Shown: positions 10,171 through 18,635 of the stretch, piece after piece
Layout of the letters: every line of letters starts with the position of its first letter
How positions within the stretch are numbered: the stretch's first letter is position 1
NCBI GenBank assembly: GCA_016844295.1
Contig: JAENIV010000008.1
Coordinates: 1-30,353 of the forward strand
Length of the DNA: 30,353 bases
Direction of reading: 5' to 3'
Origin: Candidatus Berkelbacteria bacterium
GTDB lineage: Bacteria; Patescibacteriota; UBA1384; UBA12157; JAENIV01
Position numbers and translations under genes: made by a program
The notes under the pieces: generated by a model
Databases searched by the model: none
The model's input: the letters and a program-made list of their open reading frames with translations, nothing else
What the model was told of the DNA's origin: nothing

Positions 10171-10323
10171 TCGGGATGGCGAGACTCGAACTCGCGACCT
10201 TCCGCCCAAATTCGGGGCGACTGGATTCGAACCAGCGGTCTCCAGACCCCCAGCCTGGCGCTTTACCAACTAAGCTACGCCCCGAATTTTTGGCGGACAC
10301 ACTACCAACTGTGCTACATCCCG
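10171..10323 (-). ncRNA. Outer tRNA-Pro-like shell whose anticodon loop is replaced by a complete tRNA-Pro(GGG). 5' half 10323-10293, 3' half 10205-10171
   Basis: Acceptor CGGGATG/CATCCCG + A73; D-arm GCAC-AGTTGGTA-GTGT; anticodon stem TCCGC/GCGGA; variable loop AGGTC; T-arm GCGAG-TTCGAGT-CTCGC. Confidence 0.85.
10212..10284 (-). tRNA. tRNA-Pro(GGG), nested; CCA not encoded
   Basis: 73-nt cloverleaf: CGGGGCG/CGCCCCG, GCTT-AGTTGGTA-AAGC, CCAGG-CTGGGGG-TCTGG, GCTGG-TTCGAAT-CCAGT, A73. Confidence 0.95.
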
Positions 10324-13799: not shown

Positions 13800-13999
13800 G
13801 CCGGGTTAGCCCCGGTTTGATAATCAAACTAGGTAAACTCCGCAGTCTGCCGAGATAGCGAAGTGGCCAAACGCATCTGACTGTAAATCAGACGCCCTTG
13901 TGGCTTCGGGGGTTCGAATCCCTCTCTCGGCACCAATCCTGGCGGAGTTCATCCCGGAACTAAGTTGAGGGAGGAGTGCAAATCTCTCGCTCGGCACCA
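13800..13999 (+). ncRNA. Outer tRNA-Tyr-like shell enclosing tRNA-Tyr(GTA)
   Basis: Acceptor GCCGGGT/GCTCGGC + A + CCA. Clamp helix AACTCCGC (13836-13843)/GCGGAGTT (13942-13949). Variable-arm hairpin GTTC-ATCCCG-GAAC. Bulged T-arm GAGGAG-TGCAAAT-CTCTC. D region replaced by palindrome GGTTTGAT-A-ATCAAACT. Confidence 0.7.
13849..13935 (+). tRNA. tRNA-Tyr(GTA), nested; CCA encoded
   Basis: GCCGAGA/TCTCGGC, TCTGA-CTGTAAA-TCAGA, long variable arm, GGGGG-TTCGAAT-CCCTC, A-CCA. Confidence 0.96.
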
Positions 14000-14352: not shown

Positions 14353-14569
14353 GGGGGTGTGCGAATGCTGGCAACCTTCAATGGGTGCTGGCAAAGCCAG
14401 TACAACGGTCTGGATGCCGGTCTTAACTCATCCTGCTGGGAGCTTAGTTAAGTGGTATAACGGAGGTCTCCAAAACCTCGGTCGGGGGTTCGATTCCCTC
14501 AGCTCCTGCCAAAATGAGTTAAGACGCGCAAAACCGTAGACCGGGGTTCGATTCCCTGCACCCCTGCCA
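14353..14569 (+). ncRNA. Outer tRNA-Trp-like shell enclosing tRNA-Trp(CCA)
   Basis: Acceptor GGGGGTG/CACCCCT + G + CCA. Anticodon stem ACGGT (14405-14409)/ACCGT (14533-14537). T-arm CGGGG-TTCGATT-CCCTG. D-like hairpin GTGCTGGC-AAA-GCCAGTAC. Perfect 12-bp inverted repeat 14420-14431/14514-14525 around the inner tRNA. Confidence 0.8.
14438..14511 (+). tRNA. tRNA-Trp(CCA), nested; CCA end encoded
   Basis: GGGAGCT/AGCTCCT, GTTA-AGTGGTA-TAAC, GAGGT-CTCCAAA-ACCTC, GGGGG-TTCGATT-CCCTC, G-CCA. Confidence 0.96.
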
Positions 14570-18194: not shown

Positions 18195-18635
18195 TGTCAT
18201 TCTGAGGCGTAGCCGAAGAATCTCCCATGAATATGGGTTGGTATGAGTAAAAAATATTACGTTTATATCGCTACGAATAAATCCAACACTCTTTATACTG
18301 GTGTAACTAACGATATACAAAGAAGAATGTATGAACATAAATTTAAGTTTATCAAGGGATTTACAGAAAAATATAACATTAATAAATTAGTATATTTTCA
18401 GGAATTTAATAATCCGAATGAAGCAATTACAGTTGAAAAGAAGATAAAAGGTTGGACAAGAGCAAAAAAGATAAACTTAATAAAAAGTTTGAATCCCACC
18501 TTTAAGGACTTACTTGAGTCATGTTGAACAATCGTGTAATTCTGGAGCATTGTCATGTTGAGCGAAGCGAAACATCTCTGGCGAATGCCAGTTCTCAAAC
18601 AAGTTGAGAGATCCTTCGTTTCACTCAGGATGACA
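18195..18635 (+). mobile_element. GIY-YIG nuclease cassette bounded by REP-like repeats (three copies)
   Basis: TGTCATTCTGAGGCGTAGCCGAAGAATCTC (18195-18224) and TGTCATGTTGAGCGAAGCGAAACATCTC (18551-18578) in forward orientation; inverted copy GAGATCCTTCGTTTCACTCAGGATGACA (18608-18635). Confidence 0.7.
18243..18527 (+). CDS. Small GIY-YIG nuclease family protein
   Basis: YYVYI...LYTGVTNDIQRRMYEHK...FTEKYNINKLVYFQEF...AITVEKKIKGWTRAKKINLI. Confidence 0.92.
   Translation: MSKKYYVYIATNKSNTLYTGVTNDIQRRMYEHKFKFIKGFTEKYNINKLVYFQEFNNPNEAITVEKKIKGWTRAKKINLIKSLNPTFKDLLESC

Follow-up and report, generated by a model that had tools for sequence, protein, structure and literature searches.

Two tRNA genes, one for Pro and one for Tyr, lie on opposite strands of a 30,353-nucleotide contig of a Candidatus Berkelbacteria genome (JAENIV010000008.1, assembly GCA_016844295.1), and each encloses a second, complete tRNA. 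An earlier note had read one and the same anticodon stem, TCCGC(C)...(G)GCGGA, around both enclosed tRNAs, which raises the question of whether this helix is a common recognition site for an enzyme that builds or processes such nests. The contig, called the window here, is contig C23 of genome G000 (876 kb, 40% GC, 91 contigs, 92% complete, 44 tRNAs by ARAGORN). The lineage is named Minisyncoccota in the protein Atlas, i.e., CPR/Patescibacteria, and the order tRNA-Tyr, tRNA-Thr, rpmG, and tRNA-Trp in the window is a bacterial gene order. Hereafter, the disrupted resident tRNA is referred to as the shell, the complete tRNA inside it as the inner tRNA, and the helix around the inner tRNA as the clamp. 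Class-level counts were made on 162 genomes, and the phylum-level pattern search covered 401 genomes.

The Pro nest is composed of the following parts:

10323-10171, minus strand: Pro shell overall, a perfect cloverleaf whose anticodon loop is replaced by linkers plus a complete tRNA
10286..10323, minus strand: 5' half of the Pro shell, with acceptor CGGGATG, D-arm, clamp arm, and linker
10297-10293, minus strand: 5' arm of the Pro clamp, TCCGC, at shell positions 27-31 (TCCGCC when extended to 10292)
10284-10212, minus strand: inner tRNA-Pro(GGG), called by ARAGORN, with an Rfam score of 67.3 bits
10205-10201, minus strand: 3' arm of the Pro clamp, GCGGA, at shell positions 39-43 (GGCGGA from 10206)
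10171..10211, minus strand: 3' half of the Pro shell, with a linker containing a TTTGGG remnant, clamp arm, variable loop, T arm, acceptor CATCCCG, and A73

The nest folds with a z score of -5.5, and the corresponding stem of the inner tRNA is CCAGG/TCTGG, not TCCGC/GCGGA. At positions 27-31/39-43 the clamp does occupy the place of an anticodon stem. It is not the ancestral stem of this shell, an origin that we rejected after comparison with the relative G006, in which an uninterrupted tRNA-Pro(GGG) with nearly identical acceptor, D, and T arms carries CCGGG/TCCGG instead. The clamp may in part resemble the CCGCT/AGCGG anticodon stem that tRNA-Pro(TGG) of G010 carries. The orthologous Pro nest of G002 (77% identity, with compensated changes in the shell stems) has the TCCGCC...GGCGGA clamp placed two base pairs further from the D-arm than in G000, and the clamp has been kept there despite divergence of the remaining shell to 73-74% identity.

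Since the metagenome bin consists of 91 contigs and conserved tRNA genes can be misjoined, one might suspect that the assembly had fused tRNA reads into chimeras. However, two independent public runs on other samples from other studies, X2 and X4, yielded contigs (2121 and 151 nt, respectively) that span the Pro nest with zero differences, which excludes an assembly error. Orthologous nests also occur in G002, G003, and G005, and similar ones were found in dozens of genomes, some of them closed. We therefore regard an artifact as a negligible explanation.

The Tyr nest, on the plus strand, is arranged as follows:

13800-13999, plus strand: Tyr shell overall, more degenerate than the Pro shell
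13800..13848, plus strand: 5' part of the Tyr shell, with acceptor GCCGGGT, a degenerate D region, and a hairpin at 13815-13829
13837-13843, plus strand: 5' arm of the Tyr helix, ACTCCGC, in which TCCGC is 13839-13843
13849-13935, plus strand: inner tRNA-Tyr(GTA), with CCA encoded
13940-13948, plus strand: 3' arm of the Tyr helix, TGGCGGAGT, identical to D-arm positions 8-16 of the G008 tRNA-Tyr
13942-13948, plus strand: GCGGAGT within the 3' arm, in which GCGGA is 13942-13946
13949..13999, plus strand: remaining 3' part of the Tyr shell, with no anticodon arm, a UGCAAAU T-loop, acceptor GCTCGGC, and ACCA

The inner tRNA-Tyr has TCTGA/TCAGA as its stem. TCCGC/GCGGA was thus confirmed to bracket both inner tRNAs and to be absent from both of them, and the optional C...G pair proved to be confined to Pro, the Tyr nest reading TCCGCA...GGCGGA. 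In the relative G008 we found an uninterrupted shell-type tRNA-Tyr with the same odd UGCAAAU T-loop, a gene that is nested in G000 and G003; judged by these comparisons, the Tyr shell is an unusual tRNA-Tyr that belongs to the family itself. The same shell in G003, also a relative, retains a real anticodon arm elsewhere, and the partner of GCGGAGT is absent there. Taken with the identity to the G008 D-arm, this indicates that the 3' arm of the Tyr helix is native D-arm sequence and that the helix is not the anticodon stem of the shell. Hence, the anticodon-stem label was right for Pro and wrong for Tyr, and the anticodon itself is gone from both shells. No ORF was found within either nest.

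The Tyr shell hairpin GTTTGA-TAA-TCAAAC (13815-13829) sits at a fixed D-loop site at which other shells of G000 carry extra hairpins. Shells on C17, C78, and C91 bear a small additional hairpin at one D-loop site 3' of GGTAGA, as in cta-TTCC-tgcg-GGAA-tca and cta-TCCGC-cgaa-GCGGA-tca, and the C21 Arg nest has its tRNA-bearing insert at this same site.

A further tRNA-Tyr locus was found in G005 (L047, G005:C3 781-1541, minus strand). Here an ORF-bearing insert has cut a tRNA-Tyr at 37/38, and the 5' half, which stops at position 38, shows 98% identity to the inner tRNA-Tyr of G000. Next come a 219-amino-acid ORF with an HTH domain and then a different, complete tRNA-Tyr of a third type. From its arrangement, this locus looks like serial replacement carried to a third step. 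The ORF gave no sequence match in Pfam or PDB and showed a weak structural likeness (TM 0.55) to proteins bearing LAGLIDADG_3.

How widely is such a clamp shared? We located pairs of T-loops separated by 25-55 nt in the 162 class genomes and passed them through a shell detector, which after curation left 36 nests in about 28 genomes. G000 has at least 11 nests or nest remnants, including Pro(ggg), Tyr, Trp, Arg(gcg), Met, Phe, Pro(cgg), Ala(cgc), Ala(tgc), and Val(tac), and two further Arg genes are probably nested as well. Shell and inner tRNA had the same isotype or anticodon in every curated nest. The inserts, 85-125 nt and mostly inner tRNA, enter the D-loop or positions 26/27, 31/32, 33/34, 35/36, 37/38, and 38/39, and a clamp helix 8-14 bp in length was seen in all nests. 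Inner tRNAs diverge more slowly than shell halves, as seen in three orthologous pairs, and roughly one shell in two shows visible decay or contains several inserts. The acceptor and T stems of shells are nevertheless still paired, with compensatory or wobble changes, and from this pairing the shells could retain a function at the RNA level.

The clamp sequences are mostly unrelated to each other, and another nest of the window already illustrates this, its clamp being unrelated to TCCGC/GCGGA:

14353..14569, plus strand: Trp nest, with inner tRNA-Trp at 14438-14511 and a 12-bp clamp, GTCTTAACTCAT / ATGAGTTAAGAC

Among 37 nests, TCCGC/GCGGA was the clamp in four: the Pro nests of G000 and G002, which count as one case, and two further independent cases, G002 Thr(tgt) and G000 Tyr. 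CCCGC/GCGGG was likewise seen in four, and the commonest core was CCGCC/GGCGG, present in 7 of the 37. We then compared 632 pairs of nests with different isoacceptors: some complementary 5-mer was common to 52 pairs, and a GC-rich one to 29. At the latter rate, one match among the roughly 11 nests of G000 is unremarkable on its own, and the identity of the Pro and Tyr clamps, taken alone, could easily be a coincidence of sequence.

Pure coincidence would mean that the two blocks are unrelated native tRNA pieces, a remnant of the anticodon stem in Pro and the D-arm in Tyr, each with a local inverted copy. The identity of the Tyr 3' arm to a native D-arm agrees with this, as do the TTTGGG anticodon-loop remnant on the 3' side of the Pro clamp, the CCGC/GCGG core that resembles the G010 tRNA-Pro(TGG) stem, and a different 5-mer, AACTC/GAGTT, that the Tyr clamp has in common with the Trp clamp. 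The sharing of GC-rich 5-mers is not evenly spread, however: 24 of the 29 cases came from the CCGCC/GGCGG family and only 5 of the 632 comparisons from outside it. Besides the conservation of the Pro clamp in G002, a third nest, G002 Thr(tgt), has ATCCGCC/GGCGGAT, and the same hairpin occurs empty in shell loops of four other genomes. We consider coincidence throughout unlikely, although it deserves some weight. By these comparisons the Pro clamp is a member of a real cluster, the CCGCC/GGCGG family. For Tyr, the 3' arm is the shell's own D-arm and the 5' arm appears to be an inverted copy of it, and the 5-bp identity with Pro is therefore partly a coincidence arising from a shared GC-rich vocabulary.

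Many clamps resemble inverted copies of their target sequence more than termini brought by an element, among them those of Pro in G097 and G044, Gly in G011, and Trp in G000. That clamps are always inverted target copies was rejected, since this fits Pro, Gly, Trp, and Tyr but fails for a family with conserved termini described below. Looking for target-site duplications, we saw loop-like direct repeats in some nests (Gly in G011 and Trp in G000), with none evident at the conserved-terminus nests.

The earlier note had also named TCCGCC-N-GGCGGA as a frequent short palindrome in CPR genomes, and this was borne out. TCCGC-N3-8-GCGGA occurs 29 times in G000 against 2.6 expected (about 11-fold), the third highest enrichment among all 5-bp stems of this genome (next to CCCGC, 33 versus 2.3), and the hairpin of opposite polarity was found only 8 times. 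Over the 162 class genomes, TCCGCC-N3-8-GGCGGA gave about 1113 sites versus about 73 for the reversed-polarity control, i.e., about 15-fold, and was present in 149 of them. YCCGC hairpins in G000 are intergenic in 37 of 62 cases (60%), versus about 19% noncoding DNA. Short TCCGC hairpins are for the most part found away from tRNAs, often directly 5' of ribosome-binding sites, and many YCCGC hairpins stand in tandem directly before AAAGGAG and a start codon. Hairpins ending with GCGGA before start codons are a recurrent 5'-leader architecture. Tandem GC-rich hairpins of this kind, followed by AAAGGAG and the start, are found in G000 at C28:9811, C47:15069, C87:1883, and C41:4982-5010.

As an observation apart, the exact 16-mer TCCGCCAGCTGGCGGA is found many times per genome in several genera (family f26 and others), and single genomes, e.g., G055 and G036, reach 30-58 TCCGCC hairpins. 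These repeats suggest recent bursts.

When the spacer was set to tRNA length, the picture changed: TCCGCC-N75-105-GGCGGA was only about 1.5-fold over the control in the class, and none of 30 sampled long-gap sites in other genomes enclosed a tRNA, a result that also agrees with coincidence in the window. TCCGCC...GGCGGA as a general bracket of tRNAs was therefore rejected. Within shells, by contrast, TCCGC(C) hairpins are about 9-fold denser than in neighboring DNA (6 in 8.0 kb versus 4 in 48 kb), being found in the D-loop of G000 Phe, the anticodon loops of G386 and G513 Thr, and the D- and T-loops of G481 Ala. TCCGCC is thus a real, enriched, and shell-linked palindrome, but it is not the common bracket of the nests. 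Of the two findings that together would have spoken against the note, unrelated stems in other shells did turn up, whereas a lack of enrichment did not. The original observation was confirmed in part and its interpretation supported in part. As a site common to all nests, the helix failed (4 of 37 clamps); what stood was that the CCGCC core is the commonest and that its hairpins accumulate in shells. If a recognition site is shared, the family built on the CCGCC/GGCGG core, conserved as CCTGCCCGCC/GGCAGGCGGG, makes the better candidate.

This longer relative had emerged from nests that were found blind to any motif, Arg in G000, Ala in G044, Thr in G103, and Cys in G084, all of which have CCTGCCCGCC on the left and GGCAGGCGGG on the right. 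A search for CCTGCCCGCC...GGCAGGCGGG in the 401 genomes of the phylum yielded 24 sites versus 2 in the control, and about 20 of the 24 enclose a tRNA (Thr, Val, Lys, Arg, Ala, Cys, or Leu). Each insert either follows ...GGCAGA in the D-loop of a same-anticodon shell or splits such a shell precisely at 37/38. Their termini are near-invariant over many families and isotypes, including one constant C-A and U-G position, although the invariance of the 10-mers is partly imposed by a search pattern that fixed the clamp bases. Empty copies, CTGCCCGC...GCAGGCGGG, numbered about 161 versus 2 in the control and were present in 51 of the 401 genomes; they are mostly intergenic, often on the tip of a longer hairpin, and identical 35-mers recur in different families. 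In G000 itself, empty copies lie on C5 and C6 and also on C18, where the Val(tac) shell has one in its D-loop. The terminal inverted repeats are conserved between about 20 tRNA-bearing and about 161 empty copies, a trait of MITE-like non-autonomous transposons. At two loci, L161 (G224:C26) and L154 (G243:C61), empty and tRNA-bearing copies stand in tandem in one shell loop.

The constancy of these termini, with their C-A and U-G position, is also what one would expect if the helix were a processing or splicing signal in RNA, the insert being cut out and the shell rejoined into a second functional tRNA with the same anticodon. The canonical 37/38 site is among the insertion points, pairing is kept in shell stems, and the same type of hairpin stands directly upstream of many start codons, as processing or stabilizing structures would. 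Moreover, removal of the CCTGCCCGCC element at its ends restored a canonical tRNA with the same anticodon in 9 of 19 shells. The remaining shells of the 19 are decayed or contain further inserts, however, and the loss of the anticodon from the Pro and Tyr shells of G000, the largely intergenic location of empty copies, which resembles that of dispersed repeats, and the part of the 10-mer invariance that the search imposed all speak against splicing.

The machinery for archaeal-type splicing was likewise missing from the 92% complete G000 genome: neither EndA (PF01974), for which controls matched in four archaea, nor RtcB (PF01139) nor an Rnl2-type RNA ligase (PF09414) gave a match, and this form of splicing was rejected. 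Inspection of folds and alignment by eye revealed no 3-4-3 bulge-helix-bulge motif; the clamp helices appeared continuous or with one C-A mismatch. A group I or II self-splicing intron was rejected too, as no covariance model matched and the inserts are 85-125 nt versus >200 nt expected; cmscan of the nests against Rfam ribozymes and introns, with E values up to 1-5, returned tRNAs only. Splicing followed by rejoining is, in our judgment, improbable. Of the general processing enzymes, an RNase III gene is present in G000, and RNase P RNA gave a weak hit.

Two other kinds of enzymes are candidates for acting at the DNA level. The first is represented in the window by a single gene:

18252..18476, plus strand: small GIY-YIG nuclease gene, 1 of 14 in G000

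These 14 genes encode 83-109 amino acids, and 10 of them directly adjoin tRNA genes; those outside the window are on C6, C8, C27, C33, C42, C58, C77, C85, and C86. The one on C85 (PF01541, E = 6e-17) lies between the 5' part of a shell and the inner tRNA-Ala, flanked by a 29-nt shell repeat around tRNA-Ala(tgc). Partial duplications of the adjacent tRNA are frequent at these genes and also include an 18-nt 5' fragment of tRNA-Asp and the 3' part of a tRNA-Val(GAC). A nuclease gene in or next to the target, as in a homing-endonuclease cassette, was present for some nests only. The second kind consists of RAYT-like transposases:

C20:13299-13976, C78:8695-9444, C66, and C42:1335-2039 of G000: four RAYT-like Y1_Tnp (PF01797) genes of 225-249 amino acids with the HUH motif THFHL

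Every RAYT-like gene has a hairpin repeat of its own on either side, CCCCAC/GTGGGG (another enriched stem in G000), CCCCGCTCC/GGAGCGGGG, or others. TCCGCC hairpins flanked none of the four genes, and CCTGCCCGCC-type palindromes were likewise absent from their flanks.

Taking these data together, we propose that the clamps are REP-like or GC-cluster-like mobile palindromes that have colonized tRNA loops, with replacement tRNAs as their cargo, a proposal whose chances we hold to be evenly balanced. The palindrome family YCCGCC-loop-GGCGGR, together with the longer CCTGCCCGCC...GGCAGGCGGG, would constitute small GC-rich insertion elements that favor single-stranded hairpin tips, especially the D-, anticodon-, and T-loops of tRNA genes. 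Insertion would disable the resident tRNA and turn it into a shell. Where the tRNA gene is single copy, the insertions that persist would be those whose palindrome bears at its apex a full tRNA with the anticodon of the resident gene. For Pro, a TCCGCC...GGCGGA palindrome with the inner tRNA inside it would have taken over the place of the shell's anticodon arm, and in the Tyr nest the shell's own D-arm would have supplied the 3' arm and an inverted copy the 5' arm. Mobility at the DNA level may be provided by RAYT-like Y1 transposases and/or the tRNA-associated GIY-YIG nucleases. In RNA, the clamp may form a double-stranded stalk on which the inner pre-tRNA is set apart, accessible to RNase III, RNase P, and 3' processing, and the shell halves may be left as non-decoding remnants. 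We infer these movements, enzymes, and processing steps from sequence. Neither a filled-versus-empty pair for a TCCGCC element nor a mobility event was observed in this study.

We further suggest, with a confidence slightly short of even, that CCTGCCCGCC...GGCAGGCGGG and TCCGCC...GGCGGA represent an undescribed class of palindromic elements bearing a tRNA of the same anticodon, which generates heritable nests and serial replacement of tRNA genes and whose arms are the recognition site of an enzyme. A dedicated enzyme for such a class would be either a DNA transposase or nuclease or a system for RNA excision and ligation, i.e., a new bacterial tRNA intron. Nearly all tRNA-bearing elements were found in cognate shells, not at neutral intergenic sites, and random insertion followed by selection does not easily explain this confinement, which hints at a homology-directed or local mechanism. 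Along with the clamps that look like inverted copies, the paired shell stems, and the inferential nature of mobility, this confinement keeps an intron-like alternative alive.

Known systems share some of these features. REP/REPIN sequences and their RAYTs have in common with our elements the short, dispersed, GC-rich, and mostly intergenic palindromes and the Y1_Tnp genes flanked by hairpins, and many dispersed short imperfect palindromes, the hallmark of REPs, are what the counts revealed (29 versus 2.6, about 1113 versus 73, and about 161 empty copies). They differ in that no RAYT gene here is flanked by TCCGCC or CCTGCCCGCC palindromes, and we know of no REP inside a tRNA loop or carrying a tRNA. 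Yeast mitochondrial GC clusters and Rickettsia palindromic elements are GC-rich mobile palindromes of AT-rich genomes that carry no cargo and enter genes, including those of structured RNAs, where an extra hairpin can protrude. The nests depart from them in having a same-anticodon tRNA at the apex and an apparently disabled host tRNA gene. Archaeal tRNA introns have bulge-helix-bulge motifs, a canonical site at 37/38, and non-canonical sites in the D-loop, and the tRNA-Trp intron encodes a C/D box RNA. The nests resemble them in that the D-loop and 37/38 serve as insertion sites and the inserted DNA contains a functional small RNA, but they occur in a bacterium in which EndA and RtcB were not found, their cargo is a whole tRNA, and many shells are without an anticodon. 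Integrative elements that target tRNA genes restore the displaced part, and phage T4 SegB is a free-standing homing endonuclease in a tRNA cluster. Common to them and the nests are a selfish insert in an essential, conserved tRNA gene that compensates for the damage and GIY-YIG genes by or in tRNA genes with partial duplications; in contrast, the nests contain a complete second tRNA rather than a duplicated 3' segment, and most have no protein gene.

Nests are also akin to the inserts in CPR rRNA genes and to the rRNA intervening sequences excised by RNase III, all being short, ORF-less inserts in stem-loops of structured RNA. The CPR rRNA-gene insertions, from the same lineage as the nests, include short inserts that have no ORF and are located at stem-loop tips or bases, and GIY-YIG genes occur in non-intron inserts (PMC11270868). 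That paper does not mention tRNA, and neither nests nor conserved palindrome termini are described in it. Neither tRNA-in-tRNA nests nor these termini turned up in the accessible literature on CPR/Patescibacteria tRNA introns, disrupted tRNAs, and GIY-YIG with tRNA.

If the palindromes are mobile and bring replacement tRNAs, selfish elements would have here a new way of residing within an essential gene that exists in one copy. Because nearly half of the tRNA loci in G000 bear scars, mobile palindromes would also be a major and so far unannotated force on the tRNA gene sets of ultrasmall bacteria. If the helix instead directs RNA excision and rejoining, it would define the first protein-dependent tRNA splicing system in bacteria. 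In practical terms, nests give rise to 'undetermined' or pseudo-tRNA calls, their shells being hidden from standard tRNA finders, and the conserved 10-mer termini offer a simple handle for such loci in any metagenome.

In addition to nests, G000 contains a free-standing minihelix at C36:730-791 that corresponds to the top half of a tRNA, without a D or anticodon arm; it consists of GCCCGGG, ACA, a T arm (CGAGG-TTCAAAC-CCTCG), and CCCGGGC.
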